Source: Kofleriaceae bacterium (GTDB lineage: Bacteria; Myxococcota_A; Polyangia; Haliangiales; Haliangiaceae). Taken from it: DNA of 64,000 nt. The translations under genes were made by a program, and so were the position numbers. Positions 9,922-63,267 of the stretch are shown here, in pieces. Below the pieces are notes generated by a model. That model had not been told where the DNA came from. It was given only the letters and a program-made list of their open reading frames with translations, and did no database searches. The DNA is taken from the NCBI GenBank assembly GCA_965215005.1, contig CBDCCZ010000018.1, positions 192,001 through 256,000 of the forward strand, written 5' to 3'. Every line of letters begins with the position of its first letter. The first letter of the stretch is position 1.

Positions 9922-9942
9922 CCTACGCCAGGCAACGCGGCT

Positions 9943-10820: not shown

Positions 10821-10841
10821 GTCGGCGGCGGGGCCGCGCCC

Positions 10842-12368: not shown

Positions 12369-12481
12369 GAGGCGCCGGAGATTGACACAACCTGGCCGCC
12401 GGCGCGACGGCAACGCTGGAAACCAAACGCACCACCACGCGCATCTTGCCGGCAAGGTTGGCTTCGCACTGCGCGCCTAGC

Positions 12482-15232
12482 TCAAGGAATGCTGAGCTCG
12501 AGGGTCACCAACTCGTCACCGGGGGCGAGCACCAGCGGCGTGCTCGCACGAGCCTGGCCATGCTCAGCAATGAGCTCGATGCTGCCGGTGGCGACGTCGC
12601 GCAGGCGGAAGTTGCCGTCTTGATCGGTCGTGGTGCTGACTCCCGCGGCGACAACGCGGGCGCCGGCGAGGCGGCTACCGTCGGCGTCGCGAACCGTCCC
12701 GGCGAGGGTCGCGCCGCGCTCGAGCGCAATGGCCAGCGGTTGCGGCCTCGCCGAGGAAATTTCGCCAGCGATAGAGCGCGCCGCGTAACCGGGCAGCGCG
12801 GCGCGAAAGGTCCACGAGCCAAACCCCAGCGGGCCAAGGCTAGCGGTGCCATCGGCGCCGGTGCGGCCCTCGATGGCGGCGCCGCCTGGGCCGCGTCCCG
12901 TGAGCGCCACGCCGGGCAGCGCGGCTCGCGTGTGGGCGTCGGTCAAGGAAATCGCCACGGTACCGCCGGCAGGCAAGCGCAGCTCGTCGGTAGAATCGGT
13001 GGCGACAGACGTCAGCAGCGGCGGCGAGTGCGGAGAGCGCACCTCGAGCTGATACGTTCCCGGCGCCAAGGCGGCGATGCGGAGGGTGCCGTGCTCATCG
13101 GTTCGCGCCTGGCGACCGCGACCGCTCGGCCCGGAAAGGATGCGCGCCATGGCATCACGGGCTGGAAATCCAGCTGCGTCGACGACTCGCAGCTGCAAGG
13201 TGGCATCTTGCGCCGCGAGCTCGAAGCTCTCTTCTTGCCGCTGCGCTTGCAAGCCACCGCTGCTCAACACGAGCTCGCGCTCGCGCTCACCGAAGCCTTC
13301 CGCAGTCACCACGACCGTCACCGCGCCGGCCAGCGCCCGCAGTGTGTAATTGCCGCGGTCGTCGGTAATTGCCTTGGCAACCACACGCGCCGACTCGCCC
13401 TGCCCTTCCAGCACTCGCACCCGCGCTCCGGCAACTGCTCCAGCAGGGCCCAAAATTCGGCCCCATACGACCGTCCCCGCCGCCAACGTGAGCGCAATCC
13501 CGGTTATTTCTTCTCCGGCACGAACGGTCAGCGGCTTGCTCGAGCCGGGCGCGAGCTCGGCATCGAACGCGGTGACGACATAGCGGCCTGCAGCGATGCC
13601 CTCTAGGATGAAGCGCCCCTCGCCATCGGTCACCACTCGCTCCGGCGGTGCGGGCACTTGCGAGGCAGTGTCGGAGACCTCCGCCTCGAGCGCTGCCACT
13701 AGCACCGGCTCCTCGAGGGTCGCCGCCACCGGCAACACCACCGCGTGCCGCAACATCGGCTCCGGGTCGACGAACCAGCTGCGGCCGCCGTGCTCGAGCG
13801 ACATCGCAAAATGCAGATGCGGTGCTGAGCGAAGGATTCCGGTGCGGCCGAGGGTGCCGATGGGCTCGCCCGCGCGAACGCGGGTCCCGGGCGCCAGATC
13901 CGCGCGCAGCTCGTCGAGATGAATGTAATAGGTCATCACCCCGCCGCGATGCTCGAGCACGATGAAGCGGCCGGAGATGCCGCGACTCTGCCGGATCGCG
14001 GCGACTACCACGCCGTCGGCAGCCGCATGAACGGTGCTGCCGCGCTCACGGCCGAGATCGACGCCGCAGTGACCACGCCCGCACTCGGCCGGTCTGGTTC
14101 CGGACCGAGCCGCACCAAACTGCAATGCCTCGCGCCCCGGCAGCCGCCGCGTCCCCGCCAGCGGATGCACCCAACGCAGCCCGGTGGCGCGGCTGGCGGC
14201 GAGACCGGCGGCGCCCCCCGTCTTGCCGCCCGGACCATGGCCGGCCAACACCACCTGCGCGCCCCTCACCGGCCCGCCCCGGCCATCGACAACCCGCCCC
14301 GCGATGGTCCCGCCAGGCGCCAGCACCACGGTGATGGCGGCCTGATCCTGGTGTGCCGTCAACACCGGCTGGGCGGTGGCCACATGCCCCGGCGCGCTCG
14401 CCTCGAGGCGCCAACGCCCGCGCGGCAGCGCTGCGACGACAAAGTCGCCCTGCGCCGTGGCGCTGGCGGTCATCACCGCATGATCGACGTCGAGCGGCAC
14501 CAACGCGATGGTCGCGGCGAGGCCGTCGCCGCCGCCATCAACCACCCGTCCGCGCACCGCCGTCCCCGGCTCGAGCGCAAGCTGCAGCGGCGCCGCGTCG
14601 GCTTCGACCTCGGCGCGCACCAGCGGCGACACCGCCGCGCCGCGGTGGGCCCACAGCTCGACGATGCCGGGCGCCAGCTCGTCGAAACGCGCCTGTCCCG
14701 CGGCATCGGTTTGGGCGCTGCGCGCAGGGCCTCCGCTGCCGTCGCGCAGCATCACCTCGGCACCAGCGACCGGCCTGCCCGCCTCGCGCACCTGGGCGAG
14801 CACGGTAATTCGGCGGGTGGCCAGGATGCGCGGCGGCTCGGCGGCGGGACGCCAAGCGACCTTGGCCGCGAACACCGGCGCGCCGCTCAGGAGCAACGAG
14901 CTCGGCGTGGCATCTCCCAGGCGAAACGCGCCCTCGGCGTCGGTTTTGGTCAGCTCCTGCACGCCGTCGGCGACTGCCGCGGCAATGGTGACGCCTTCGA
15001 TGGCGGCGCCCGCGCGGTCGATGACGTAGCCCGACACCGGCAGCGGCTGCAGGCGCGGCGGCTCGCGCGCAGCGCCGGGCGCCGTCGACTGCGGCGCCGC
15101 CTCTGGGCTGGCCGGCGTTGCGGTAGTCGAGGCCGCCAGCACCAGGGCGCCGCCCACGGCTGCGACCGCCGCCGCGACCACTGCGACGCGCCACGGCCTT
15201 CGGCGCTCGAGCGCAGCGCGGCGAGCAATCAT
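12482..15232 (-). CDS. M23 metallopeptidase embedded among carboxypeptidase-regulatory-like (CarboxypepD_reg) repeats
   Basis: HCGVDL, YIHL and PHLHF M23 motifs flanked by repeated GRVVD..G.P..GA.V...TD..G.F units; N-terminal TM. Confidence 0.8.
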   Translation of the reverse strand: MIARRAALERRRPWRVAVVAAAVAAVGGALVLAASTTATPASPEAAPQSTAPGAAREPPRLQPLPVSGYVIDRAGAAIEGVTIAAAVADGVQELTKTDAEGAFRLGDATPSSLLLSGAPVFAAKVAWRPAAEPPRILATRRITVLAQVREAGRPVAGAEVMLRDGSGGPARSAQTDAAGQARFDELAPGIVELWAHRGAAVSPLVRAEVEADAAPLQLALEPGTAVRGRVVDGGGDGLAATIALVPLDVDHAVMTASATAQGDFVVAALPRGRWRLEASAPGHVATAQPVLTAHQDQAAITVVLAPGGTIAGRVVDGRGGPVRGAQVVLAGHGPGGKTGGAAGLAASRATGLRWVHPLAGTRRLPGREALQFGAARSGTRPAECGRGHCGVDLGRERGSTVHAAADGVVVAAIRQSRGISGRFIVLEHRGGVMTYYIHLDELRADLAPGTRVRAGEPIGTLGRTGILRSAPHLHFAMSLEHGGRSWFVDPEPMLRHAVVLPVAATLEEPVLVAALEAEVSDTASQVPAPPERVVTDGEGRFILEGIAAGRYVVTAFDAELAPGSSKPLTVRAGEEITGIALTLAAGTVVWGRILGPAGAVAGARVRVLEGQGESARVVAKAITDDRGNYTLRALAGAVTVVVTAEGFGERERELVLSSGGLQAQRQEESFELAAQDATLQLRVVDAAGFPARDAMARILSGPSGRGRQARTDEHGTLRIAALAPGTYQLEVRSPHSPPLLTSVATDSTDELRLPAGGTVAISLTDAHTRAALPGVALTGRGPGGAAIEGRTGADGTASLGPLGFGSWTFRAALPGYAARSIAGEISSARPQPLAIALERGATLAGTVRDADGSRLAGARVVAAGVSTTTDQDGNFRLRDVATGSIELIAEHGQARASTPLVLAPGDELVTLELSIP

Positions 15233-47770: not shown

Positions 47771-48679
47771 TCCTGCTGCATCCAGCTCCTGCGCCGGCGG
47801 CTGAACCTCAACCACGGTTCCCACAGGGGGAAGCTCAGTCGTCGCCGCGTTGCCAATCTGCGCTTGCACGAAGATCAGCTGCGAAGCGGAATCGACCACC
47901 GCGGCCACCGAGGTGATCGAAGCCTGCCAAGACGTCGCGCCAAGATGGGCCGTTACCGGGGCGCCAACGACAAACGCGGGCGCCCGCTCTGGCCGCACGG
48001 CGAAGCGCAAATCGCGCTCCTGGGACATCAGCTCGACGATGGGCTGCTCGGCCGCAACGGTTGCGCCAGCATCGAAGCGCCGTGCCGCGACATGTCCGGC
48101 CAACGGCGCGCGTAAGGTTGCGCGCTCACGCAGCTGCGCGAGCTGATCGCGAACCGTGCGGTGACGCTCGATTCCCGCGAGGCTTCGCTCGAGCTCCGCC
48201 TGCCCTTGCGCCCGCGCCGACCGCGCATCGCGCAGCTGATTGCTCGCCGCCGCCTGCGCGCGCACCAGCTTCTCGACCGCCCTCACCTCTTGACGTGCCG
48301 TGCGCAACGCGACCCGAGCTTGGGCGGCAATTGCTTGCGCCTCACGCAATGCGCTATCGGCCGCTTCGAGCTCAGCATCGAGCTCTTCGGTCTGCAGGGT
48401 CGCCAATACCGCTCCCTCGGCGACGAAATCACCGACCTCGACGCGCATTTCTTCGACCCGTGCTGGCACCGGCAACGAGACGGCTACCTGGCGTCGCGCC
48501 ACGATGACGCCGATGAATCGCTCCACGCCCCTGCGCGCCGTCGTGGCCACAGGTCGCATCTGCCGCGTCGTAGGTGCCTCGAGCGGAGTGGCCTCACACC
48601 CGGCGATCATCGCGCAGCCGAGCAGTATCGGCAGGTGCCGCGCCACGCCATACCACGGTGAGTCGATGATCCTCTTCAT
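47723..48679 (-). CDS. Efflux periplasmic adaptor (HlyD/MFP) lipoprotein
   Basis: IAGC lipobox, lipoyl half-motifs ([19 protein letters not shown]), coiled coil. Confidence 0.85.
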
Positions 48680-50939
48680 TGGCTTCCTTCCAGTCATGCT
48701 CGGGCGCCGTCGGACGAGACCGTCCAGGAGGTGCAGGGTTTTTGCGAGAAGCGCCGAGCTGCGCGCGCACGAGTCGGGCGTAGCGTCCTCCCGCGGCCAG
48801 CAGCTCATCGTGGGTGCCTCGCTCGACGATGCGACCGCGATGCACCACCACGATGAGGTCCGCATCGACCACCGTGCTGAGGCGGTGGGCGATCTGGATG
48901 CGGGTCATGCGGAGCCGCTTGAGCTGACGCACCACGCGCGCCTCCGTCTCCGCATCGAGCGCGCTCGTGGCTTCGTCGAGCAGCAGCGCCACGGGGCGAG
49001 CGAGCAGTGCCCGCGCCAGCGCCAGTCGTTGCCGCTGACCGCCCGATAGCGACTGCCCGCGATCAGCGAGCGGAGTCTCGTAGCCCATCGGCAACTTGGC
49101 GATGTCATCGTGAATGCAGGCGGCCTTGGCCGCCGCAACGACGCGATCGAGGTCCGCATTCGGATCGGCCAGCGCGATGTTGTCGCGAATCGAGGTATCG
49201 AAGAAGTAGGGGTCTTGCGGCACCGTCCCCAGCTGCGCCCGAACCGCACGAAGATCGAGGCGTTCGAGCGGGTGCTCATCGAGCAAGATGCGTCCCGCGG
49301 TTGGCGCGTACAAGCCGAGTAGCAGCGCCGCAAGGGTTGATTTGCCCGATCCAGACTCACCGACGATGGCGACGTTGGTGCCCGCGGGAATCTGCAGCGA
49401 CGTGTCGCGGATGACGTCGGGACCGGCATCGCGATAGCGAAATGAAACCTGGTCGAGCTCGATTGCCCCCGTGAGCCGCGTGATCTTTCCCGGCTCCGAC
49501 TGTTCGGGCTCCACATCGAGAACGTCCTTGAGTCGGTCGAGGTGACCTCGTACCTGTTGCAGGGACAGCGCGCTCGCCACCAAGTTTCCAAGTGGCTCGA
49601 GGAACGAGCCGGCGAGCGCGTTGACCGCCAGCATGGTGCCAAGCGACAGCTCGCCGTGGACCACGCGCACCGCGCCGACGCTGAGGATTGCCAGCGGCGC
49701 GGCCGTGCGGAGGGCGCCGAGCAGCGCATCTACCGTGGCGCGCGACCGGCTCATGTCCAACCCGGCGTTGAGCATGTCAGCCAAATCATGGCTCCAACGC
49801 TCCACCGCCCGCTGCTCGGCTCCTGCTAGCTTCAGGGTGCCGATTGCCGACAGCGCTTGCACCAAGTACGACTGCGAGCGTGCGTTGGCATCGACCACAC
49901 TCGCCTCGAGATCCTCAAAGCGGCGCCGCGTCACGAGAAGGATCACGAGCTGCAGGATTCCAAATCCCGCCACCAGCGCGGCCACGATGGCGTCTGCAAT
50001 CAAGATGATGATCAGATAGAAGACGACGAGCCCGCCGTCGATGAGCGCCGACAACGTCTGCGACGTGAGTAGCTCGCGGATGGTTTGATTGCTGGCGATG
50101 CGCGACAGCAAATCTCCGGTCGAGCGGCGCTGAAAAAAACTATACGGCAAGCTCACCAGATGGCCGACGAAGCCGAGCGTCATCCGGGTATCCAAGTCGG
50201 TGCGCATTTGCAGCAGCAGATGCGCGCGGACCAGCGACGAGAGCATCTTGAACACGACCAGCGTTGCGAGGCCGAGGCCGATCAGGGTGAGCATGTCGAG
50301 ATCGCCCTGGGGAACCACGCGGTCGACGATCAAGCCGGTGAGCAGCGGGACGGCGAGCGCGAACACCTGCAGCAGTGCTGACATCGCAAGGATTCGCCCG
50401 AGTCGCGCGTTCATCTGTCGCAAGAACGCGCGCACCAGGCCGCCGCTCGGCAGCCGGCGCACGAAGGTGTCACCCGGCGCTAGCTCCAGAGCGATTCCGG
50501 TGAATGAACGCGACACCGCCTCGCGGCTCAGCGCGCGCCGCCCGCGCGCCGGATCCACGACGTGCACAAGGCCCCGAGCCACCCGCTCGAGCACCACGAA
50601 GTGATTGAATTCCCAGTGCAGGATGGTGCCCGCCGGCGCATGTTCGAGCTCGTCGAGCTCGAGCGACACGCCGCGTCCGCGCAAGCCGAATCGCTCACCG
50701 GCGGCAACGATGCCGCTGGCGCTGGTGCCCGCGTCGCTGGTCCCCGCCGCAACCCGCACCTCCCCCAGCGGTACGTGGCAGCCGTGATGCGCCAGCACCA
50801 TTGCCAGACACGCGGCGCCGCAGTCGGCAGCCTCCATCTGCCGCACAATCGGAATCCGCCGCCGGCGCGGCACGAGCTTGGTGAGAGCGGGAAATCGCTT
50901 CGTATCGACAGGCGCCAAGGCAGGCGGCGAATTGGCCAT
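48594..50939 (-). CDS. Peptidase-containing ABC transporter (C39 PCAT), double-glycine peptide exporter
   Basis: QMEAADCGAAC, HWEFNHFVV, ABC membrane domain, GESGSGKST, LSGGQRQR, LDEATSALD. Confidence 0.95.
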   Translation of the reverse strand: MANSPPALAPVDTKRFPALTKLVPRRRRIPIVRQMEAADCGAACLAMVLAHHGCHVPLGEVRVAAGTSDAGTSASGIVAAGERFGLRGRGVSLELDELEHAPAGTILHWEFNHFVVLERVARGLVHVVDPARGRRALSREAVSRSFTGIALELAPGDTFVRRLPSGGLVRAFLRQMNARLGRILAMSALLQVFALAVPLLTGLIVDRVVPQGDLDMLTLIGLGLATLVVFKMLSSLVRAHLLLQMRTDLDTRMTLGFVGHLVSLPYSFFQRRSTGDLLSRIASNQTIRELLTSQTLSALIDGGLVVFYLIIILIADAIVAALVAGFGILQLVILLVTRRRFEDLEASVVDANARSQSYLVQALSAIGTLKLAGAEQRAVERWSHDLADMLNAGLDMSRSRATVDALLGALRTAAPLAILSVGAVRVVHGELSLGTMLAVNALAGSFLEPLGNLVASALSLQQVRGHLDRLKDVLDVEPEQSEPGKITRLTGAIELDQVSFRYRDAGPDVIRDTSLQIPAGTNVAIVGESGSGKSTLAALLLGLYAPTAGRILLDEHPLERLDLRAVRAQLGTVPQDPYFFDTSIRDNIALADPNADLDRVVAAAKAACIHDDIAKLPMGYETPLADRGQSLSGGQRQRLALARALLARPVALLLDEATSALDAETEARVVRQLKRLRMTRIQIAHRLSTVVDADLIVVVHRGRIVERGTHDELLAAGGRYARLVRAQLGASRKNPAPPGRSRPTAPEHDWKEANEEDHRLTVVWRGAAPADTARLRDDRRV

Positions 50940-52940
50940 CTAGAAGATCCTCTCGAGTCCTGGGAACAAGCTAATGAGGAGCGACTCCGACCGAACCTCG
51001 ATGTCGACGGTGGCTGCCATCCCGTGATGAAAACGATGGGTGACGCCGTCGATCACGAATCCTTCGCTCGGCAACGCCACCCGCACGAACACCACCGCGG
51101 TGGTGATCGGAACGGCGTCGCCGAGCAGGCTGCCGAGACGACGAGCAGCCGCCCCCGGACCAAGCGCCTCATCGCCAACTTCGACGATCGGCAGCTCGAG
51201 ACGAACACCGCGATGGCCAGCAAGGGAAACACGGGCGCGATCGCCAAGCTCGATGAGAGGACGACGAGCGGCGGGAATGGCCGCCAAGACGCTCATTTCG
51301 GGGTCGGCAGCGACAACGGAGAGGATGGGCGCGCCGGCGGCGACGGTAGCTCCGCTGCGCAAGAGCACTTCGCCGGCCACGCCCGAACGAGGAGCGCGAA
51401 TCGAGTGTCGCTCTACCGCGCGTTCGGCCTGCTCACGCCGTGCACTCAGCTCCACGAGTGCCTGGCCTGCAACCGCGTCTCGCGGATCCATGAGACGCTC
51501 GATGAGGCGACGGTCGAACTGATGCTGGAGCGCGGCAAGCTCGGCTCGGGCACCCTCGTCGCGCAACTGCGCGACCACCTGCCCTGCTTGCACGCGCTCG
51601 CCCGGTTCGACGACGACAGCTTCGAGAACGCCGCTTAGCTCGGCAAGCGCGTCGCTGCGCTCATCAGCGACGACGACGGCAACGCCGCTCGCATACTCGC
51701 CGACCCGACCGACGCATAGATAGACCGCCGCGGCGGCGAAGAACGCGACGATGATCCAGTAGACGATGTTGACCCACGGTGAGTGCACGCGAACAACGTG
51801 CCCGCGGTCCCGCCGGCGCCGGTGCGCGTCGATCGCCTCAGGTCGAAACACGCTGGCTTCGGAGGCGACCGGTTGCGCCTCCAGCCCCCAGGAAAGCGCA
51901 TCGAGGAGAGGCCCACAGGCGGCGGCGAAATCGGCCGCGATGGCACGTTCGCGCGCATCGAAAGGAGCGCCACGCCCGTCTCTAGCCGCGATCCACACCG
52001 CGTGGAGCTCTTCGGCGCCATGGACCGGCTGCACCAGTAGCCGCGCCTTTGGGCCGAGGCCGAGGTCGTCGACCGCCGCGCAATATTGCGGCGCATCACC
52101 GGCCCGTTCGACCGCAAGGCAAACGCCTCGCCGGAGCGCCTCGCCAGCGAGACCGAGCAGGCCCTCGACCTCGAAATCATCACCGGGCTCATCTGCCTCG
52201 TACGCCAGAGTTGCTGCCTCCGCATCGACATAGAGACAACGCGCGCGATCGGCATCGATCAGTTGGGCGAGCTCACGGGCCATGACGCCGCTGCTGTCGC
52301 GCGTGCTTGGCTGCATCGCGACACGCCGCAGCGCAGCGCCGATCTTACCGCGGCCCCGGTCGGCTGGCGGTACCGCATCCACAGCCGTGGGGCTCCATTC
52401 TGCAACCGGGTCGACGCGCACCAGCGGCGCAGTGGGCTGCTCGGCGATCGGTAGCAGCTCGAGTGGGTTTGCGCTGGGGGCCGATGGCCACGATCTCGCT
52501 GCCGCGATGGCGCCGGCACCTGCCACTTGGCCGAACGGTGGGGACGGCTGTCTCACGCTTGGGAGTCCGCTAGAATCCATCCCGCGGTCGCTTGCGGCTT
52601 CGAGCAACGCGCTGCGAAGCGCGTGCGGCGACAAACTCCGGGACAACGGCCGCGCGCGCCGGGAGGGAAGCACCCCAGCAGCGTCGATGAGCGCGAACAC
52701 CGGGCCACACTGCCGCGTGCACAACCACTCAATCAGCGCTGCAGCGTGCTCGGTGGGCGCGCCGACGACGATGGCGTTGAACCCACGCTGACCGACAGCG
52801 GCAACGGCTTGCGCGGCGGTCTCGACGCCAACGACCTCACACGGCGCGAGGCGCTCGCGTAGCCACGACCAGGTTCTTTCGTCAGCGTCGCACACCAGAA
52901 ACGAAGCGAGCGGAGCCGGTGGTCGCGCCGGACGAGCCAT
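50940..52940 (-). CDS. HlyD-family secretion adaptor with N-terminal receiver-like and GAF domains
   Basis: GAF-like region (ADRARCLYVD...LLVQPV...PFDARE), VFRPEA motif, TM, lipoyl/coiled-coil HlyD body; abuts the PCAT start. Confidence 0.85.
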   Translation of the reverse strand: MARPARPPAPLASFLVCDADERTWSWLRERLAPCEVVGVETAAQAVAAVGQRGFNAIVVGAPTEHAAALIEWLCTRQCGPVFALIDAAGVLPSRRARPLSRSLSPHALRSALLEAASDRGMDSSGLPSVRQPSPPFGQVAGAGAIAAARSWPSAPSANPLELLPIAEQPTAPLVRVDPVAEWSPTAVDAVPPADRGRGKIGAALRRVAMQPSTRDSSGVMARELAQLIDADRARCLYVDAEAATLAYEADEPGDDFEVEGLLGLAGEALRRGVCLAVERAGDAPQYCAAVDDLGLGPKARLLVQPVHGAEELHAVWIAARDGRGAPFDARERAIAADFAAACGPLLDALSWGLEAQPVASEASVFRPEAIDAHRRRRDRGHVVRVHSPWVNIVYWIIVAFFAAAAVYLCVGRVGEYASGVAVVVADERSDALAELSGVLEAVVVEPGERVQAGQVVAQLRDEGARAELAALQHQFDRRLIERLMDPRDAVAGQALVELSARREQAERAVERHSIRAPRSGVAGEVLLRSGATVAAGAPILSVVAADPEMSVLAAIPAARRPLIELGDRARVSLAGHRGVRLELPIVEVGDEALGPGAAARRLGSLLGDAVPITTAVVFVRVALPSEGFVIDGVTHRFHHGMAATVDIEVRSESLLISLFPGLERIF

Positions 52941-53056: not shown

Positions 53057-53110
53057 GCCCACTGCGCGCGCCAACGACGAGCGGTATAGTCTTTGCTCAT
53101 TGCGGTCGCG

Positions 53111-56100
53111 ATGCGATGGGAGTCCCCGAAAGGACGCGTAACTGCTGAAGAGCTGGCCGAAACTGTAGCTACCTCGGATACACAAGGTGTAACCAAAGAC
53201 CCAGGTCAGGGTCATCATCCCCCGCCGGACCTACCTAATCCTGGGGATCGGGTCGGCCGCTACCGGCTGGGCTCGGTCATCGGTAGCGGCGGCATGGGCT
53301 GCGTGATGCGCGCCGAGCACGTCGATCTAGGTCGCCAGGTGGCGATCAAGTTCATGCTCACAGCCAAAGAGCAGGCCGAGGCAAACGTCGTGCGCTTCTT
53401 TCGCGAAGCACAGCTCGTCAACCGCATTCGCCACCCGCACGTCGTCGACGTCACCGATATCGACTGGCTACCCAGCGGCGCCGTCTACATCGTCATGGAG
53501 CTGCTGCACGGGCGCTGCCTGCAACGGGCGATCAGCACCGGACCACTGCCGCTGGGTCTCATTCAACGCATCGCGCACCAGTCGGCGGCGGCGCTATCGG
53601 CGGTGCACGCGGCGGGCATCATTCATCGCGACATCAAGCCCGGCAATTTGTTTCTCTGTGATGATCAGGCTGAACCACACCTAAAGATCCTCGACTTTGG
53701 TGTCGCCAAGCTCGGGGCCGACAGCGTTGCAAAGGCAGACGTTCTCACCGTGGCGGGCGGAGTCGTCGGCACGGTCGCCTACATGGCTCCAGAACAAGCA
53801 CGCGCTGAAGAACTCGATGCCCGCGCCGACCTGTTCTCGCTCGCTGCGACGCTCTACGAAGCAGCCACCGGATATCGGCCGTTTCGCAGTCATGCGCTCG
53901 GCGCGTTGGTCCACGAGCACACCACGTACGTGCCGCCGCGGCTTTCACAGGTTTTAGGCGCCGGCGTCGTGCCGGCGGCCCTCGATGAGACCATCGCCAG
54001 TGCGCTTCAGGTCGATCCCCACCGACGCCCCCCCTCCGCCGCCGCATTTGCCGATGCGCTCTCCGGATCCACCCCGCCAGCACGCTCGCTATCGCTGCCG
54101 GCGCCTCGGCCGCGGGCTGCCCGTAGCTCCCGACACACCGCAGTCGCCGTATGCCTTCACGCGCATGGCGCTGGGGCGGCGTTACGTGCGATCGCCGAGG
54201 CCACCGAGGCTGCCGGCGGGCTCGTGCTCGAGCGAAAGGCGAGCGCGCTCACCGCACTATTCGGAGTTCCCGACGTCGACAGCAGCACGTTTGCCCGCGC
54301 GCTCGAGGTTGCCGAAAGCGTTCGCGACGTGAGCATCGTGCTCGAGCTCGGTCGTGTGCGGGTCCGGCGAGCTCCCACAGGCATCGTGGCGACAGGCTCG
54401 CTGCTCACGCGGCTAGCGCGGCTAGCTAGCATCACGTGCCCAGGCCTGCGACTTGGTCCCAACGCGCACCGCTGGGTGTATCCGCTCGCGAGCGGTGATG
54501 CCGAGATGCCGCGGCCCGACGCACGGCCATCGCATCACGGTGAGCTCGTTCGTATGGTCAGCGCCGCTCTGGCTGGCGATGACACCGCCTGCCACATCGT
54601 CATCGACGGGCCGCCAGGCGCGGGCACTACCTACAGCTTGCATACGGCGCGGGAGAAATTCGACGCCTCGGCCCGGTGGCACGCCGCTCGCGCGCGACCG
54701 GGCGATCGCGGTTTCTACGCCACTCTGACGCACCTCGTCCCTGCCCTGGCCGAGCAGCTGCGGGCAGCGCCGACGCGACACGATGAACGAATTGATGCGT
54801 GGCTAACCGCGGAGGTGAGCTCCGGGCCGTTGGTCATTGCCCTCGATGACGCCGAATACGCCGATGAAGCCAGCATGGCGACGCTGCGGCGCCTCGCGGA
54901 GCTCGGCCGTGGAAAGCCGATTGCCGTGATCGTGGCGGGTCACCAACTCGACCACGACGGCGGTCAGCGACTCTCACTCGAGCCGCTCGCCGACCGCGCA
55001 GCAACGCAGCTCGCCGCCGCCCTCGCTCCAGCGGCCTCACGCGCCGAGATTGATGCGGTCGTAGCACGCGCAGCGGGCTGTGCTCGTTACGTCGTCGAGC
55101 TCGCGCGAGACCTCGATGCGAATGGCTCCGGCGCCGAAGAGTCAGCAACATCCCCGGCGCTCGAGCTGGCGACACGAGCGCATCTCGACGCCATGCTTCC
55201 CCACGCCCGACGCATCTACGAAATCGTAGCGATTGCGCAACAGGCGGGCTGGGCGGAGCTATTGGTCGCGCTGGCCGTCGCCCGCGGCTCGACCGCCGAC
55301 GAGGCACGCGAAGCGCTCTGGGAGCTCGAGGAGTGCGGCGCGATCGTGGCGGCGGAGGACGGACCTGCGACTTCTGAGCGATTCGTCGCCGCTGTGCCGG
55401 TTCTCGCCGAGACGGCGTATCGCGAGCTCAGCAGCGAACAGCGCCGCGCCCTGCACCTCGATTTGGCCACCCGCCTCGAAGCGGAGGGTGAGGCCGAAGC
55501 AGTTCCCGCAATTCCGTCTTTGCTCGCCGCGGCCCGCCAGTATGCTGCCGCTGGCGCCATCGATCACGCCGCTCGCTGCGACCGCCGCGCAGGGGCCGCA
55601 CTGCTGGCCGCCGGCGATCATCGCGGTGCGCACGCTGCACTGGTGCGCGCCATCGACGCCAGCGCGCCGTCGAGCGAGCTGCTCGAACAAGCCGGCGACG
55701 CGGCGATGGTTGCCGCCGGTCTGGACGCTGCGCAAGACCTCTATGCGCGGGCCCTCGACCTATCGGAACCCGACGAGCTCACCCGCGCACGCCTATGGCG
55801 CAAGCTCGGCGACTGCGCGACCCAGCGTGGAGACAACGCTGTGGCGGCGGCGTACTACGAGCGGGGGATTGCAGCGCTGGCTCCCGATGGCGAGCTCACG
55901 CCGAGAGCAGAAGCCGACGCGGTGACCGCGGCAGAGCTTTACGCCGCGCTGGGATGGCTGCGCGGCTATCAGCTCGGCGATTTCGAGATTGGCTCGCAAC
56001 TCGGAGCTCGCGCGCTCGAGCTATTGGAGGGAACCGAGCACCAGCAGGCGCTCGCGCACGCTTTGTCGCGGTTGGGTGGCTGCTACATGCGAGGGGGGCG

Positions 56101-56797
56101 CTACGCGGAACAGCTCGCGTGCAACGAGCGGACTCTCGAGGTGTCCATCGGCCTCGGTGATACCTGGATGGAGATGATCGCTCGACTCAACCTCGGAATT
56201 ACCTACTTGACCACCGGAAGGATTACCGAAGCGCGCGCTCAAACCACCCGCGCCTTGGCAATGGCGCGACGCACCGACTCGGTTCGCGTCGAAACCGTGG
56301 CCACCAACAACCTTGGCGCCATCGAGCTCGAAGCCGGAGATCCGTATCGCGCACTCGCTCACTTTGAACGCGCCGCAGAGCTGGTGCTCCGCTCGGGTTA
56401 CCGCTCGGTGCTACCAGAGCTCCACCGCGTCCGCGCTCGCGCCTACGCAGCCATAAACGATCTCCACCGCGCCAACCGCGACGCCCGACGCAGCCGCGCG
56501 CTAGCAACGCAACTCGAGGCCAGCTTCGAGGCCGGGCTTGCCGCGCGCGTGTTGGCGCTGATCGCGCTCCGGCTCGACAACCCGCAGCGGGCGAGCGCGT
56601 TACTCGACGAAGCGGCGGCACAAATCGGCACGCGCGACCCGCTCGAGTGCGCCAGGCTGAGCGTCGCGCGGGCGCTGCTTGCGCGCGCGGAGGGCGCCCC
56701 CGACGCCGATGACCAACTCGCCGCCGCGCACTCCGAGCTCGAGCGCCTCGGCCTCGCCCATGAGATCGCCGCGTTTGCAGCCAACAGCATCCGCTGA
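53111..56797 (+). CDS. Ser/Thr kinase - degenerate AAA/STAND NTPase - TPR multidomain protein
   Basis: GSGGMG, VAIK, HRDIKPGN, DFG and YMAPEQ motifs; Walker A-like GPPGAGTT and Walker B VIALDD; C-terminal TPRs; start uncertain. Confidence 0.88.
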   Translation: MRWESPKGRVTAEELAETVATSDTQGVTKDPGQGHHPPPDLPNPGDRVGRYRLGSVIGSGGMGCVMRAEHVDLGRQVAIKFMLTAKEQAEANVVRFFREAQLVNRIRHPHVVDVTDIDWLPSGAVYIVMELLHGRCLQRAISTGPLPLGLIQRIAHQSAAALSAVHAAGIIHRDIKPGNLFLCDDQAEPHLKILDFGVAKLGADSVAKADVLTVAGGVVGTVAYMAPEQARAEELDARADLFSLAATLYEAATGYRPFRSHALGALVHEHTTYVPPRLSQVLGAGVVPAALDETIASALQVDPHRRPPSAAAFADALSGSTPPARSLSLPAPRPRAARSSRHTAVAVCLHAHGAGAALRAIAEATEAAGGLVLERKASALTALFGVPDVDSSTFARALEVAESVRDVSIVLELGRVRVRRAPTGIVATGSLLTRLARLASITCPGLRLGPNAHRWVYPLASGDAEMPRPDARPSHHGELVRMVSAALAGDDTACHIVIDGPPGAGTTYSLHTAREKFDASARWHAARARPGDRGFYATLTHLVPALAEQLRAAPTRHDERIDAWLTAEVSSGPLVIALDDAEYADEASMATLRRLAELGRGKPIAVIVAGHQLDHDGGQRLSLEPLADRAATQLAAALAPAASRAEIDAVVARAAGCARYVVELARDLDANGSGAEESATSPALELATRAHLDAMLPHARRIYEIVAIAQQAGWAELLVALAVARGSTADEAREALWELEECGAIVAAEDGPATSERFVAAVPVLAETAYRELSSEQRRALHLDLATRLEAEGEAEAVPAIPSLLAAARQYAAAGAIDHAARCDRRAGAALLAAGDHRGAHAALVRAIDASAPSSELLEQAGDAAMVAAGLDAAQDLYARALDLSEPDELTRARLWRKLGDCATQRGDNAVAAAYYERGIAALAPDGELTPRAEADAVTAAELYAALGWLRGYQLGDFEIGSQLGARALELLEGTEHQQALAHALSRLGGCYMRGGRYAEQLACNERTLEVSIGLGDTWMEMIARLNLGITYLTTGRITEARAQTTRALAMARRTDSVRVETVATNNLGAIELEAGDPYRALAHFERAAELVLRSGYRSVLPELHRVRARAYAAINDLHRANRDARRSRALATQLEASFEAGLAARVLALIALRLDNPQRASALLDEAAAQIGTRDPLECARLSVARALLARAEGAPDADDQLAAAHSELERLGLAHEIAAFAANSIR

Positions 56798-56887
56798 TCT
56801 CTCATATTACTACTGGTCCAAAGAGCACCTAGCGCTAGCGCGGCACGAAGCGAGGCTCCAGACGGCATGTTCTCGCAAATAGGGCTA

Positions 56888-56914
56888 ATGCCCTCGCACT
56901 AAGCGCGAGGGCAT
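56888..56914. terminator. Hairpin downstream of precursor B / kinase gene
   Basis: ATGCCCTCGC-actaagc-GCGAGGGCAT, 10-bp perfect stem, 17 nt past the stop of 56932-57138. Confidence 0.65.
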
Positions 56915-56931
56915 CAAAGGACAGATTTCTT

Positions 56932-57138
56932 TTAGAACTTGCCGCCGCTGTAGAGGCCAGTACCGGTAACTTCGAAGTGAGCTTCCGCCGCCCGGCCGTG
57001 AGCCGCGAACGCCTCGCCACGGTTGTCCCACGCCCAGTCAGCCGCGCCCGTGATCGCTTCGCTAGCCGCGAGCTCGAGCAAGAACCTACCGACACCTCCG
57101 CCGGCGACATTTACAGTATTCAGATCGATGGTCTTCAT
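56932..57138 (-). CDS. Putative double-glycine-leader precursor peptide B (68 aa)
   Basis: MKTIDLNTVNVAGG leader plus 54-aa core; GGAG RBS, own sigma54-like promoter and downstream hairpin. Confidence 0.7.
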   Translation of the reverse strand: MKTIDLNTVNVAGGGVGRFLLELAASEAITGAADWAWDNRGEAFAAHGRAAEAHFEVTGTGLYSGGKF

Positions 57139-57202
57139 TGCTATCTCCCGTTCCTTTAGAAGGTTTGAGCCGCGACACATTCGCGACGTTGACCAAAGCC
57201 TT

Positions 57203-57218
57203 TGCGAACAACGGACCA
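57203..57218 (-). promoter_or_regulatory. Sigma54-like promoter of precursor B
   Basis: TGGTCCGTTGTTCGCA with GG-N10-GC spacing. Confidence 0.55.
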
Positions 57219-57270
57219 ATCGCCTACCTCGTAAACATCAGTCGTCCCGTCCCCTCCCTCCAGACTCGAT

Positions 57271-57306
57271 GTTGCCCGCAAGCCTCAGATGTCGCCAGCC
57301 GATGAC
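57271..57306. promoter_or_regulatory. Tandem UAS-like boxes (degenerate)
   Basis: GTTGC-N6-GCCTC, 4 nt, GTCGC-N6-ATGAC. Confidence 0.45.
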
Positions 57307-57477
57307 GTAAATGAGAGTCTGCACCGGATGCGTGATGAATAGTCCCTTCTCCTTATTAACGCGTGATTATGAAATTCGACTGGATCCTCAAACGGGCATA
57401 CGAGTGGTCTACGAATCTTCAGCCTTGGGCGAGGTGAATGGTGACGGCACGCACTGGCGCCGTCTCACCTATCGCGA

Positions 57478-57514
57478 GTTGCCAGGCGGCGACAGTCCGT
57501 CGCTCACCTGCAAC
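57478..57514. promoter_or_regulatory. Tandem UAS-like boxes
   Basis: GTTGC-N6-GCGAC, 5 nt, GTCGC-N6-GCAAC. Confidence 0.65.
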
Positions 57515-57564
57515 ATCCCACGCCGCTAGAACGGCTAGAGGGGCTTACGAATAGGCATTTCGCC

Positions 57565-57580
57565 TGGCACAACCGGTGCA
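57565..57580 (+). promoter_or_regulatory. Sigma54 -24/-12 promoter of the precursor A-JmjC operon
   Basis: TGGCACAACCGGTGCA. Confidence 0.8.
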
Positions 57581-57622
57581 ATCCCCCAACTCGTTCAATC
57601 CACACCTTCAGAGGAGTAAACT

Positions 57623-57838
57623 ATGAAGAACCAGCGAAAGTCTCTCTCTCTCCAAGATCGCGCGCAGCTCCACGATGCCGCGCTCGATACCGTCTCCGGT
57701 GGCACGACGATGCCGCGCATGCCACCGGTCGGTCCAGAGCCGTTTCCGTGGGGCATCATCATCGAGCCTCCTCCGACTGGAGGGCTGCCGTTCCCCACGC
57801 CTCCCGGATTTCCCTACGGCATACCGGGACTGGGCTAA
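57623..57838 (+). CDS. Putative RiPP precursor A: double-glycine leader plus Pro-rich core (71 aa)
   Basis: GAGGAG RBS; leader ends LHDAALDTVSGG (L-12, L-7, V-4, GG); core TTMPRMPPVGPEPFPWGIIIEPPPTGGLPFPTPPGFPYGIPGLG. Confidence 0.85.
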   Translation: MKNQRKSLSLQDRAQLHDAALDTVSGGTTMPRMPPVGPEPFPWGIIIEPPPTGGLPFPTPPGFPYGIPGLG

Positions 57839-57841
57839 CCG

Positions 57842-59080
57842 ATGGTCGCGGGTTCGTCCGTCGGAGCTCGAGAAGCGCACGATGAGGCTCCGGCGGCGGC
57901 CCTCGCCGCCCTGTTCGGTAGCGACGGCGCACGAGCTTTCGCCGGCCCACATTGGCCGCATCACCCGTTCGTCGTCCATCGCACGCTCTCGCAGCTGCCG
58001 AGCGCACTGCGGGCACCGCTGCTACTCGACCCGCGCGCCCTTGCTGCCGTCTACCGCGGCACCGTCGAGGTAACGAACGGTCGCGCGGGCCAATTTCGCC
58101 TCAGCGGCGTCGATCCGAATGTCTACTTTGAAGTATTAGGCCTTGCGACTCGCTTTAGCGAGCTCCAGCAATACGTGCCCCAAGCAGCATCGTACTTGCG
58201 CGAGCTCGAGGCCGCCCTGGGCGCGCCGAATGGCTGCGCGAGCCTTCATGCGTTTGTTAATCCGGCTCATGTGGGTCTCGCCGCGCACTGCGATCCGGCG
58301 GAGCATATCGCTGTGCAACTCGCCGGCAAGAAGCGGTTCAAGGTGCTGCGCAACGAGGTTCCCTATGCGGCAGTCTCCCATGGTGCTCGTCGCCCCCCTT
58401 CACGCCGCACACTAGCGACGATTGGTGGTCATCTGCCGCGCTGGGAGCGACTTCCCGAGACCGCAGAGACCATTGACCTCGAGCCGGGCTCGGTCCTATT
58501 CATGCCGCGCGGCACGTATCACGAGACTCTCGGCGGTGAAGGCGAGCCATCCGTCACGCTCGTCATTCAACTCGCAGTTCCCAGTGCAGCAGACGTCTTC
58601 TTAGACTATCTACGCGACTATTTGGCGCAGGCAACACCTTGGCGCCAGCCGCTCTTACACACCTGGCGCGGCGCCTCTCCGGCCGCACAGGCGCACCTTC
58701 GAGACAGTCTCGATGACCTTGCCGAGCGACTCCTCCGCCTATCGCCTCAACAAATGATCGATGCGCGCTCTCCTGCACTCACGCTCGATTACGCACGATT
58801 GGTTCGCGCGCCGGGCGTCGAGGTCCGCGTCACAATCGACGACGACCAAATGTGCGTCCAGTTCGTAGCCGACGATCGCAGAGCCAGCGCCCCGGTCGAG
58901 CTGGCAGCCGAGCTGAGCAGCGTCTTCGACTGGCTGCTCGCACAAACCGACCCATTCTCGCTCGCGGCCGCGCAACAGGCCCTCCCAGAGTGGGAGCCGG
59001 ACGCTATCGAGGCAGTGGCGCAGTTTCTGCTCGCGCGTGGTGCGTTGCTCTCGCTTCCCATCGAGCCGTTCAATGCGTAA
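57842..59080 (+). CDS. JmjC/Cupin_4 (YcfD/ROX-like) Fe(II)/2-oxoglutarate oxygenase
   Basis: AHCD..EHIAVQLAGKKRF and LEPGSVLFMPRGTYH give the HxD...H facial triad; C-terminal winged-helix-like region. Confidence 0.88.
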   Translation: MVAGSSVGAREAHDEAPAAALAALFGSDGARAFAGPHWPHHPFVVHRTLSQLPSALRAPLLLDPRALAAVYRGTVEVTNGRAGQFRLSGVDPNVYFEVLGLATRFSELQQYVPQAASYLRELEAALGAPNGCASLHAFVNPAHVGLAAHCDPAEHIAVQLAGKKRFKVLRNEVPYAAVSHGARRPPSRRTLATIGGHLPRWERLPETAETIDLEPGSVLFMPRGTYHETLGGEGEPSVTLVIQLAVPSAADVFLDYLRDYLAQATPWRQPLLHTWRGASPAAQAHLRDSLDDLAERLLRLSPQQMIDARSPALTLDYARLVRAPGVEVRVTIDDDQMCVQFVADDRRASAPVELAAELSSVFDWLLAQTDPFSLAAAQQALPEWEPDAIEAVAQFLLARGALLSLPIEPFNA

Positions 59081-59201
59081 CTCACGCACCATTCAAACGT
59101 GCGCCCGTTTAGCGGTTTCGCTCGGCCCCGTCGTTTTCAGCACGAACCGCGATGAGTAGATAGCCTACCGTGCGCCGCTCGAAACCTAGACGAACAGAAA
59201 C

Positions 59202-59600
59202 TTGAAACAGCGCACGGTATTCGTACTGGACGGCCTCGGCGCGTCTGTCAGCGCCATCCTTTTAGGTCTGGTGCTGCCCCGTCTTCAGCATTGGATCGGG
59301 CTTCCCACCGTCCTGTTGTACGTTCTTGCGGAGAGTGCAGCGGTGCTGGCCCTCTATTCGTTGAGCTGCGCCCGTTTCGCCAATGCGTCAGACGAACGCT
59401 GGCTGCGGGCGCTCGTTGTCGCCAACCTTCTCTACTGTGCCGCCACGGCCGGGCTCGTGCTCTGGTTCTGGAAGGCAATGCATCCCCTCGGCTTCGCGTA
59501 TTTTGCTGGCGAGATCTTCATCATCCTTGGGCTCGTTCAACTCGAGCGACGAGTCTTGGCAAGGCGAAGGGAACGTCGGCGCGCTCGACTGGCGCTATGA
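59202..59600 (+). CDS. Small 4-TM membrane protein
   Basis: Four hydrophobic segments; TTG start. Confidence 0.65.
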   Translation: MKQRTVFVLDGLGASVSAILLGLVLPRLQHWIGLPTVLLYVLAESAAVLALYSLSCARFANASDERWLRALVVANLLYCAATAGLVLWFWKAMHPLGFAYFAGEIFIILGLVQLERRVLARRRERRRARLAL

Positions 59601-61133: not shown

Positions 61134-62984
61134 TTACTGCGGCGTCTGACCCGGATTAAGGGCGCCAAAGGTGGAGTCGCCCTGGGTCCAGTCGCTCGAG
61201 TCGTTCGCGTCGGTGTCGCTTAGCCGCTGCAGCGAGGGTCCCGTCGATTCGGCTGGCGCGGCATTGTTGTTGTAGACCGCGTGCGGGTGGAAATCGCCAT
61301 CCACGAAGCCCATCGCTGGGACTCCGCCGCCGACCATCTGCCACTGCGCCGCCGCCGCCACCACCGCTGCCTGTGCTTCGGTGCCTGCAGCGGTATTGGG
61401 CTCGTACATCGGATCATCGACCGCTTGATCGGTCACGAAAACGGCGTCGAGAATCGCGCCAGCAGCGTCATAGAGGGTAAACACGTTGTTGGTGCGGGTG
61501 AGGCCGCTATCTGCCGACCACCAGTCGAACGCGGTGTCGTAGTTGCCAGCGTACTCCGCAGCCGGCTGGGCAGCGATGCCGTCGCGCTCGTCGACGACGC
61601 TAGCTGGGGCACACCTAGCGGTATCGAGGTGAACGACGATGAGGTCATTGGTAGCGACCTCGAAGTCGCTGAAGGTGATGAGCGTTTCGCGATCGCGTTC
61701 CTGCAGCACGACGCCGTTCATCGTGCCTCCGCTGAGCACGCGGAGCTCGATGAGGTCGCATTGGCCATTGTTCTCGCCAACGATGTTGGACTTCACCTCG
61801 TTGATGCGCACAGCGGCCACCGCGGTGTAGCCCGCAAAGGTAGCGGTGTTGGCGTCAGCTGCCACGGGCTCGCCATCGCGATCGGTCACGGTGTCGGCCA
61901 CGGTAACGGTGTAGTCGGCGGCGGTTTGCGCGGCGGTCGTGAGAACCACGGTGGTGTCATCGGCGGGGTCGAGCGCGGCGCCGGTGACGGCGAGCGCGGT
62001 GCCGCTGCTATCGATGATGCTGAAGCCAGCGGCTACGACCGAGTCAGTCGCAAGTGGCCGGCTGAAGGAGAGCCGCACCTCGGTGGCGGAGGCGGCAACC
62101 GCCGTGTTCAAGCGCGGCGAAGCGCATTGAGTGATCGTCACGTCCTCGGCGACGAACGCGGCGAGCTGCAGTCGGTCGCGGAATCGACCGACGGGCGTTG
62201 CTCGAAGTGAAAACATGCAGCCTTCGGTGAGACCGAGCTCGTCATCGAGCTCCTCGGGTACACGCAGCAAGAAATTTGCCTCACCCGTGATACCCGGGGT
62301 TTCGATCGTAGCGGCCTGAAATCCACTACCGGCGAAATCGAAGGCCGAGGTAACGGTGCCGCTCATCGTGATCAGCTCGCTCTCGTAGTCGTCGATGTTA
62401 GTCACCAGGTCGGTGGCGCTGGAGAGATCCTGCACGAGCGGCATGAGGTCGTTTGCTTCGCTGCTGCGAGCCCAGTCGGTGAGCGCCGTGGCTTGCCGCA
62501 ACCCATTGACGGTGCCCATCGAGGTAATCGTGAAGCTGACGGCATCGCCCACCGCGGGAGCTGGTGTCAACGTGGTCGGATCAATGGCGACGAAGAGCGC
62601 CGGCCCGGTTGCATCGACCTGCACGGTGAACCCGGCGACGTCACTGCCGATGCTCGGCTTTAAATAGGTTACGAAGGCGTTGACGATGGCGATAGAGAGG
62701 CCTTCGCCGTCGGCGGCCGCACGCGCAGCAGCGATGCCTTCTGCGCCGGGGTCCGTGGGATCGGTCGGGTCCGTGGGATCGGTCGGGTCCGTGGGATCGG
62801 TCGGGTCCGTGGGATCGGTCGGGTCCGTGGGATCGGTCGGGTCCGTGGGATCGGTGGGATCCGTTGGGTCCGTGGGCATCGCGTCGGGCATGTCATTGCC
62901 GGACGAGCCTTCGTCGTCGCCACAAGCGGCAGCCATCATCGCTGCCACAAACAAGAGCAGTCCAAACCATTTCAAGCGGAGCAT
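61134..62984 (-). CDS. Surface lipoprotein with PTD-repeat linker, Ig-like and lamin-tail-like domains
   Basis: Lipobox AAAC; (PTD)n; VRLSFSRPL Ig-like; VRINEV...IELRV lamin-tail-like. Confidence 0.75.
   Translation of the reverse strand: MLRLKWFGLLLFVAAMMAAACGDDEGSSGNDMPDAMPTDPTDPTDPTDPTDPTDPTDPTDPTDPTDPTDPTDPTDPTDPGAEGIAAARAAADGEGLSIAIVNAFVTYLKPSIGSDVAGFTVQVDATGPALFVAIDPTTLTPAPAVGDAVSFTITSMGTVNGLRQATALTDWARSSEANDLMPLVQDLSSATDLVTNIDDYESELITMSGTVTSAFDFAGSGFQAATIETPGITGEANFLLRVPEELDDELGLTEGCMFSLRATPVGRFRDRLQLAAFVAEDVTITQCASPRLNTAVAASATEVRLSFSRPLATDSVVAAGFSIIDSSGTALAVTGAALDPADDTTVVLTTAAQTAADYTVTVADTVTDRDGEPVAADANTATFAGYTAVAAVRINEVKSNIVGENNGQCDLIELRVLSGGTMNGVVLQERDRETLITFSDFEVATNDLIVVHLDTARCAPASVVDERDGIAAQPAAEYAGNYDTAFDWWSADSGLTRTNNVFTLYDAAGAILDAVFVTDQAVDDPMYEPNTAAGTEAQAAVVAAAAQWQMVGGGVPAMGFVDGDFHPHAVYNNNAAPAESTGPSLQRLSDTDANDSSDWTQGDSTFGALNPGQTPQ
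62749..62876. repeat. Coding tandem repeat, 18-bp unit (two 9-bp subunits), encoding about 14 Pro-Thr-Asp units
   Basis: Five perfect copies of gggtccgtgggatcggtc plus degenerate copies. Confidence 0.95.
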
Positions 62985-63267
62985 GCGCGCCTTATACACC
63001 ACTTCTGGGGCGATACCGTCTCGTCACTTCACTCGCTCGTTGCAAACGAACATAAGCGGAATTCCTTGGCATTTGCCGAACCAGCGACCAAAGCTCGGCG
63101 GCCGATGAGTCCTCCCATAACCTCCTGCGACCGAGTGAGCTGCCGATCTCTACGAACGGCATTCTTTTGTTGCAGCAGGTAGTCGATGGTCCTACTCCAG
63201 CGTTTGTAAGCAACACTTTGATTTGCAAGGAGTAACTGGAATGAACTGCAACAAACGTTCAAACGCG

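Follow-up and report, generated by a model that had tools for sequence, protein, structure and literature searches.

A JmjC oxygenase paired with a proline-rich double-glycine precursor in a Kofleriaceae bacterium: a probable family of enzyme-modified peptides

JmjC oxygenases have so far appeared in the pathways of peptides that are made by the ribosome and modified after translation (RiPPs) as accessory tailoring enzymes only, namely CzlI (2024) and BipG (2025). CzlI belongs to a JmjC subfamily, its gene adjoins the precursor gene in the curacozole biosynthesis of Streptomyces curacoi, and it converts Phe18 of the precursor CzlA to Tyr by hydroxylation, for which sequence outside the core is required (PMC11575548). 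Among known structures YxbC comes closest to CzlI, whose iron is bound by His145, Asp147 and His224 (PMC11575548). Here we describe a small gene at positions 57623-57838 of a 64,000-nucleotide stretch from a Kofleriaceae bacterium (assembly GCA_965215005.1, contig CBDCCZ010000018.1, positions 192,001 to 256,000 of the forward strand), which as a whole is called the window below. The gene encodes a Pro/Gly-rich peptide with a double-glycine leader and stands directly before the gene of a JmjC/cupin oxygenase. Peptide and oxygenase together probably represent an undescribed family of enzyme-modified peptides.

The locus resembles that of CzlI in the JmjC gene next to a precursor gene, in YxbC as the nearest solved structure of the enzyme and in a near-identical spacing of the iron ligands (H149/D151/H227 here), CzlI being compared through its published description. 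CzlI is dispensable for its pathway, a cyanobactin-like azole route of several enzymes in which it serves for tailoring and turns a single Phe into Tyr, whereas here the oxygenase is the sole conserved partner of a precursor that has a double-glycine leader and a Pro/Gly-rich core. BipG is described as a JmjC-domain, 2-oxoglutarate/Fe(II)-dependent ornithine hydroxylase that acts on the RiPP precursor of biphenomycin (PMC12707348). Besides BipG, the biphenomycin pathway requires MNIO, radical-SAM, HExxH and arginase-like enzymes, and none of them lies near the gene here. The hydroxylation of proline exists in bacterial RiPPs, as PesO, a 2-oxoglutarate-dependent HExxH beta-hydroxylase, is described as making 3-hydroxyproline (PMC13060819). 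PesO is alike in being an Fe/2-oxoglutarate enzyme that hydroxylates a precursor residue and differs in its unrelated fold, with an HExxH iron site instead of a JmjC barrel. A 2025 survey of RiPP recognition elements (RREs) lists RRE-like domains fused to JmjC (PF08007) and bacterial homologues in RiPP-like contexts, none of which it characterises (PMC12710340). No description of this peptide family, or of a JmjC enzyme with a Pro-rich double-glycine precursor, was found in the literature searched, which left most subscription journals outside.

The precursor gene runs on the forward strand from an ATG at 57623 to a TAA stop at 57836-57838 and encodes 71 aa; it is backed by the list of open reading frames (ORFs), by homologues and by a family hidden Markov model (HMM). 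A Shine-Dalgarno-like GAGGAG, read from the sequence, is located at 57611-57616 (+), 6 nt 5' of the ATG. The codon-position GC content of the frame is 0.67/0.56/0.69, and three overlapping ORFs in other frames were not distinguished by this measure. Since codon-position GC does not discriminate the overlapping frames, composition alone cannot establish the gene as real, and the argument for its reality is drawn from its ribosome-binding site, from homologues and from a gene order that is conserved. A scan of 56800-59400 for promoters and terminators was uninformative, with no promoter-like site and two terminator-like sites, a number equal to that in shuffles. The ORF has the look of a true precursor whose leader is of the double-glycine type, which bears out an earlier note on this stretch that had picked it out from the letters of the DNA.

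Double-glycine leaders show a GG (or GA/GS) cut site and hydrophobic residues at positions -4, -7 and -12 from it. Residues 1-27 of the precursor (57623-57703, +), with the C-terminal end ...LHDAALDTVSGG, follow this pattern, having V at -4, L at -7, L at -12 and G at -2 and -1 from the cut site. The peptide is thus like the double-glycine peptides exported by C39 transporters (class II bacteriocins and NHLP/Nif11-type RiPPs) in its GG site, in the residues at -4/-7/-12 and in having a C39-ABC transporter with HlyD nearby. It differs from them in matching no curated leader, in a core unlike known bacteriocins and in an exporter that lies outside the conserved pair. An ESM Atlas look-up of the peptide returned rows named 'Bacteriocin' or ComC-type (best score 0.87, all below 0.9), which we treat as leads only and as compatible with a generic double-glycine peptide.

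The core comprises the remaining 44 aa (residues 28-71; 57704-57835, +) and is Pro/Gly-rich by composition count. It has 15 Pro and 8 Gly and is without Cys, Ser or Lys, exactly as had been counted before, and it also contains 4 Thr, 4 Ile and 3 Phe. The repeats that had been named are also present, PFPWGI at residues 40-45, PFPTPP at 56-61 and GFPYGI at 62-67. Proline-rich antimicrobial peptides are cationic and Arg-rich and carry PRP-type motifs. With one Arg, no Lys and two Glu in 44 residues, the core does not belong among them, in agreement with the earlier note. Two further suggestions in that note were not supported. The Gly residues of the precursor are at positions 37, 44, 53, 54, 62, 66, 69 and 71, without a triplet period, and a collagen-like peptide is not indicated in view of the missing Gly-X-Y periodicity. 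The internal TGG, proposed as a second processing site, is unlikely to be one: no leader helix precedes it and it is not conserved, as one homologue has PGGG at the corresponding place and the others have nothing comparable.

Homologues of the peptide are very rare. A word-index search of 5.8 billion proteins returned the query peptide alone, and an exhaustive phmmer search of 1.84 billion representatives at E <=0.001 gave five matches including the query, among which one was a short homologue. This homologue, P0010, has 69 aa and 46% identity to the window peptide (E 1.4e-4), and shows the same layout, with a leader ending in ...LEEVGGG and a Pro/Gly-rich core that contains PWGIP and GFPNGFPG. 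The other three matches (P0007-P0009, 511-726 aa) are long tandem-repeat proteins; they were judged low-complexity matches and dropped. The sole match beyond the peptide itself in its own genome (E 1.3e-4) was rejected as chance, being an alternative frame of a 561-aa gene. Further precursor homologues are the near-duplicates P0012 and P0013 and ORFs in the loci L101, L105, L123 and L125.

The pairing of the peptide with the oxygenase was followed through homologues of the enzyme, two of which, on short contigs, have 42-44% identity, while many have about 30%. In the best metagenomic locus (L054, enzyme identity 38%), a 67-aa ORF ends 89 nt before the oxygenase gene and encodes a peptide with the leader end ...LESVAGG and a core containing YFPQGIPWP. 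Among 401 sampled genomes of the same class, six including the window's own carry the oxygenase clade (E <=1e-40). In four of these (G645, G623, G210 and G544) the oxygenase gene is preceded, about 25-90 nt upstream and on its own strand, by a homologous double-glycine peptide; the core of G645 holds four VFP[DY]G[IL] repeats, that of G623 two VNGIP units, and those of G210 and G544 two GPIGFPP units. In all, the pair is kept in six of the seven loci with DNA context (the window, L054, G210, G645, G623 and G544; the seventh is G462), where the peptide precedes the oxygenase by 4-90 nt and shares its strand. A leader-core precursor beside a modifying enzyme, in conserved pairing, is one of the marks of a RiPP system, and these six loci show it. 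The family HMM recovers all six paired peptides at E 1e-27 to 2e-3, and the leader columns M1, L8, L16, L21, G26 and G27 are invariant in an alignment of six family members.

On about 90 Pseudomonadota and metagenome loci of distant oxygenase homologues, the family HMM found no comparable peptide, with two weak exceptions (L011 and L019, E 0.009, about 5 kb from the oxygenase gene). When 91 loci (L004-L094) were screened for a leader of GG type with FPxG[IVL] after it, L054 came up. The screen also gave a match in L005 that was not counted: it belongs to a 139-aa frame that runs on the opposite strand at a distance of more than 4 kb from the JmjC gene, and the family HMM did not recover it. 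Four distant JmjC homologues in the phylum (G252, G164, G265 and G099; E 1e-26 to 1e-31) were placed outside the family, as no double-glycine peptide lies upstream of them.

Similar double-glycine leaders with unrelated cores had matches in 18 of the 401 genomes of the class. The leader type is accordingly read as widespread in the class and the Pro-rich core as rare. In the loci L104-L121, many small ORFs were seen with the leader K-K-L-x-L-N-x-E-T-L-R-x-L...V-x-G-G and unrelated, mostly Cys-rich cores.

The element that the cores share is G-[I/L/F]-P, which was found in all eight of them. The eight cores contain 18 copies in total compared with 2.44 in composition-preserving shuffles, and none of 5000 shuffles reached 18. 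The extended form F-P-x-G-[I/L/F]-(P) occurs in five of the eight cores, two of them near-duplicates. In the window the core has GLP, GFP and GIP, plus an FPWGI without the terminal Pro. FPWGI (residues 41-45; 57743-57757, +) aligns with TPWGI, FPDGI and FPQGI of homologues, and the cluster GLP-FPTPP-GFPYGIP (residues 54-68; 57782-57826, +) holds three G-[ILF]-P units. When the window core was shuffled 5000 times with its composition kept, FPxG was as frequent as observed (two or more) in 0.9% of the shuffles and G[ILF]P (three or more) in 1.1%. The window translated in all six frames (127,996 residues) contains three copies of FPxG[ILF], two of them inside the precursor ORF.

The earlier note had defined the repeat as F-P-(W/T/Y) and would have been refuted by motifs that homologues do not share. 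It withstands this check in a modified form: repeats are indeed conserved in the homologues, with G-[ILF]-P in eight of eight cores and FPxG in five of eight, but the aromatic form was not kept: the residue after F-P varies (W, Y, D, Q, N or P among homologues). The conserved core unit is therefore described here, from the aligned cores, as G-[ILF]-P, often with F-P-x in front. Phe itself is present in every core, with 2-4 copies each, and F63 is invariant in the six aligned precursors.

The oxygenase gene (57842-59080, +) starts 4 nt after the precursor stop and encodes 412 aa, with Pfam scores of 36.6 bits for Cupin_8 (cut-off 27.4) and 35.5 bits for JmjC_2 (cut-off 22). H149, D151, K164 and H227 are invariant in 34 aligned homologues, and H149-x-D151...H227 reads as an intact HxD...H iron triad. 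K164 is the predicted 2-oxoglutarate ligand by its spacing of D+13, presumably that of Lys214 in FIH. The AF2 model of the enzyme (mean predicted local distance difference test, pLDDT, 90.7) has the double-stranded beta-helix fold. By profile and by fold alike, the closest solved structure is YxbC of B. subtilis (PDB 1VRB, 7ZCC), with a profile E of 3e-43 over positions 1-299 and a Foldseek E of 1.5e-18 (23% identity, target-normalised TM score 0.75-0.81, root-mean-square deviation (rmsd) 2.5-3.3 A). NO66, MINA53 and YcfD rank after it. A maximum-likelihood tree was made from 37 JmjC homologues, which took in the six peptide-linked enzymes then known and left out G623, G544 and G462. The six peptide-linked enzymes grouped in a single clade (support 100/99), and the 29 Pseudomonadota sequences stood separate from it.

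The C-terminal part of the oxygenase (58796-59056, +) is a winged-helix domain, as judged from the secondary structure of the models and from its resemblance in fold to RRE domains as well as to the C-terminal domains of MINA53 and NO66. YxbC, with about 340 aa, stops where this domain starts. YcfD, NO66 and MINA53 are built from the same three parts, a JmjC domain, a helical domain and a winged helix at the C-terminus (Foldseek 1e-17 to 1e-12); they differ in hydroxylating Arg or His of ribosomal proteins, in not standing beside small leader peptides and in an identity of only 16-21%. Folded alone, the domain reached a pLDDT of 86.2, with a beta3-alpha3 order and matches to RRE domains at Z 5.5-7.9, a range below 8 that is common for the winged-helix fold. 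The best of these was the leader-bound RRE of PbtF (Z 7.9, rmsd 3.0, 84 aligned), followed by TigE (7.8), MccB (7.7) and TbtB (7.3); ThcOx, MibB, McbB, LynD, TbiB1, CteB, PqqD and NisB were also matched. The C-terminal fold is thus compatible with leader binding.

The co-fold of oxygenase and precursor, each with its alignment, scored 0.45 in all three runs compared with 0.00 for the best of three controls. The mark applied is reached by 116 of 157 solved complexes and by 2 of 215 mismatches, and scores of 0.60 or less fell to only 18 of the 157 solved complexes and to both of the passing mismatches. Agreement between the runs covered at least 32% of the contacts, with a pLDDT of 45-46 for the partner. 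The predicted complex lends weak support to the binding of the precursor by the oxygenase.

From here on we argue by inference, be it for the peptide as the substrate of the oxygenase, for the oxidised residue and the kind of oxidation, for the enzyme that removes the leader or for the role of the product. The 27-residue leader would be held by the oxygenase, probably via the winged-helix domain of RRE fold. With Fe(II), 2-oxoglutarate and O2, the JmjC domain would then oxidise, and most likely hydroxylate, the Pro/Gly-rich core at its repeats of G-[I/L/F]-P, which in the window copy are FPWGI, GLP, GFP and YGIP. A C39-peptidase ABC exporter, here probably the one upstream of the pair that is accompanied by HlyD, would cut after Gly-Gly and secrete the product. 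This scheme of a leader-guided precursor, oxidised at its repeats and cleaved on export, is the account that we favour, with an appreciable share of doubt.

Hydroxylation is preferred because it is the default chemistry of the branch to which the enzyme belongs. As to its site, the motif Pro is the simplest candidate since it is invariant in the motif, and it is the residue we would name first, if tentatively. A beta-carbon hydroxylation of I/L/F fits the C3-hydroxylase habit of the oxygenase family and is possible with a somewhat lower probability. The ring of Phe, by analogy with CzlI, seems an unlikely site, and some other chemistry at the core equally so. The earlier note had seen its repeats as sites of iterative oxidation of Pro or of the aromatic residues. 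The idea of oxidation at repeats is made plausible by the conserved JmjC pairing, while the aromatic third position is an unlikely target because it is not conserved among homologues.

Several observations weigh against this account. We know of no JmjC prolyl hydroxylase. Among the curated leader and bacteriocin models, no Pfam and no NCBIfam family matched the window peptide at E <=1; its relatives gave only sub-threshold matches (TIGR04149 at 0.041, NF038167 at 0.0018). The motif statistics come from about seven independent sequences of a tiny family, P0012 and P0013 being near-duplicates. In G462, a member of the clade, the double-glycine ORF is 2 kb upstream, and its short core, NFANYQGSD, lacks G[ILF]P, so the oxygenase clade is not tied to one motif. 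The RRE matches of the winged-helix domain are middling, it also matches ribosomal oxygenases (MINA53 Z 8.5, rmsd 3.0, 86 aligned; NO66 Z 7.0), and the domain is also present in Pseudomonadota homologues without such a peptide. Because these peptide-less homologues and the ribosomal oxygenases carry the same domain, its presence is not proof of leader binding. The co-fold gave no contacts, so no residue was placed at the iron. Finally, the exporter is about 7 kb upstream, with a kinase gene and a second peptide gene in between, and may serve that second peptide; a C39-ABC exporter was found within about 9 kb in two of the seven loci (the window and G210) and was absent from that range in the other five.

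A rival reading is an unmodified class II-type bacteriocin or signal peptide that is simply cut and exported, the JmjC enzyme acting elsewhere, for example on a ribosomal protein as YcfD and NO66 do. The double-glycine leader, the C39-ABC with HlyD nearby, the many peptides of the class with similar leaders and unrelated cores (18/401 genomes) and the ribosomal protein hydroxylases among the relatives of the oxygenase all agree with it. We nevertheless consider it improbable, as the peptide and the oxygenase stay together in 6/7 loci and the exporter is near in only 2/7, the 4-nt spacing suggests coupled translation, and the peptide-linked oxygenases form a clade of their own. A far smaller probability is given to a chance open frame in GC-rich DNA that is never translated. 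It could appeal to the three longer or similar overlapping ORFs in other frames that codon-position GC did not discriminate, to the missing family-model match and to a sole paralogue-like match in the genome that is an alternative frame of a real gene; against it stand the strong ribosome-binding site, the homologues with the same leader-core layout in at least six other loci and in two further database proteins, and the same position relative to the oxygenase despite an enzyme identity of 37-49%.

The oxygenase might also act on the peptide in another way, by an aromatic or C-O/C-C cross-link or macrocycle, by desaturation, or by a backbone cleavage that releases short peptides. Fe/2-oxoglutarate enzymes are capable of such chemistry, a 2025 paper in JACS reportedly describes macrocyclisation by an alpha-ketoglutarate dioxygenase in RiPPs, and the four VFP[DY]G[IL] units of G645 would suit a multi-copy precursor. 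Yet the characterised JmjC-type peptide and protein enzymes considered here, CzlI and BipG, are hydroxylases, the aromatic positions are not conserved between homologues, and the conserved pair comes without a protease other than the C39 domain. We rate this chemistry as no more probable than an unmodified peptide and continue to favour hydroxylation of a leader-bound precursor.

If hydroxylation of the repeats is correct, the locus would provide an enzyme and its substrate, simple and easy to express, with which proline-rich peptides could be oxidised site-selectively at C-H bonds. The known substrate range of the YxbC branch would be widened too, its founder YxbC having no known substrate as far as its PDB titles show. 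A bolder version, to which we give rather less than even chances, is that of a self-sufficient two-gene cassette. The pair would then be a new RiPP family in which a JmjC enzyme, as the sole class-defining enzyme, iteratively oxidises G-[I/L/F]-P (e.g., to hydroxyproline or beta-hydroxy residues), and no JmjC enzyme before it would have been shown to hydroxylate prolyl or aliphatic residues in a peptide that a bacterium secretes. The combination of G-[ILF]-P and the leader is a handle for mining more members. The family is rare, judging by the clade's occurrence in the sampled genomes, and therefore any product would be new chemistry and not a re-discovery.

The neighbourhood of the pair contains the genes of a possible export system. 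The C39-peptidase ABC exporter (PCAT; 48594-50939, -) has 781 aa, with Pfam matches to Peptidase_C39 (4.6e-34), ABC_membrane and ABC_tran, and scores 640 bits against NCBIfam TIGR03796, under the cut-off of 853. Next to it is the gene of a 666-aa HlyD-type membrane-fusion protein (50940-52940, -; Pfam HlyD_3 1.2e-9; NCBIfam type_I_hlyD 5.9e-15, under the cut-off), the partner of the exporter. The exporter is a candidate for both the leader peptidase and the exporter of the precursor. In G210, a 51%-identical C39-ABC and an HlyD homologue lie 3-6 kb from the pair. Since an exporter is near in two of the seven loci only, it was placed outside the conserved unit.

Between the exporter genes and the precursor lie three further genes. 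Family models assign a large Ser/Thr kinase with AAA and TPR parts to 53093-56797. The second small peptide (56932-57138, -), divergent from the precursor and with a leader that ends in Gly-Gly-Gly, opens with MKTIDLNTVNVAGGG, after which comes a core of 53 residues that is rich in Gly/Ala and not in Pro. This peptide matched no family model of Pfam or NCBIfam and may be a separate substrate of the C39 exporter. ORF72 (57311-57529, +; 72 aa) is upstream of the precursor and unconserved. Neither ORF72 nor the second peptide nor ORF132 (59202-59600) had a match in the related loci, and all three were left outside the conserved unit.

The seventh locus, that of G462 (L129, about 8700-12900), contains two tandem JmjC paralogues with 35% and 30% identity to the window enzyme and a Ser/Thr kinase directly upstream of them. 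It is read as a relative of the cassette that has diverged and has another substrate. A Ser/Thr kinase beside the JmjC gene was seen in three of the seven loci (window 53093-56797, L101:6334-9201 and L129:8719-9495), with TPR parts in the kinases of the window and L101. This co-occurrence may be chance, and the genomes are possibly kinase-rich.

Near the JmjC pair of G210 (L101:11541-16418), an ORF has a C-terminal GG site followed by three TTLALGEEG repeats, and a RimK-type ATP-grasp gene (Pfam), the HlyD homologue and the C39-ABC are found in the same region. We take this neighbourhood to resemble a graspetide (omega-ester peptide) cluster. Directly upstream of the distant JmjC homologue of G265 (L099, E 3e-28), there is a putative lipoprotein with two CMGKNDCKGKGGC repeats, presumably akin to the Cys-rich metal-binding peptides that accompany DUF692-type enzymes. 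In the window itself, 61134-63002 (-) encodes a 622-aa predicted secreted protein with about 13 PTD repeats near its N-terminus and CopC/Big_5-type Ig-like domains.

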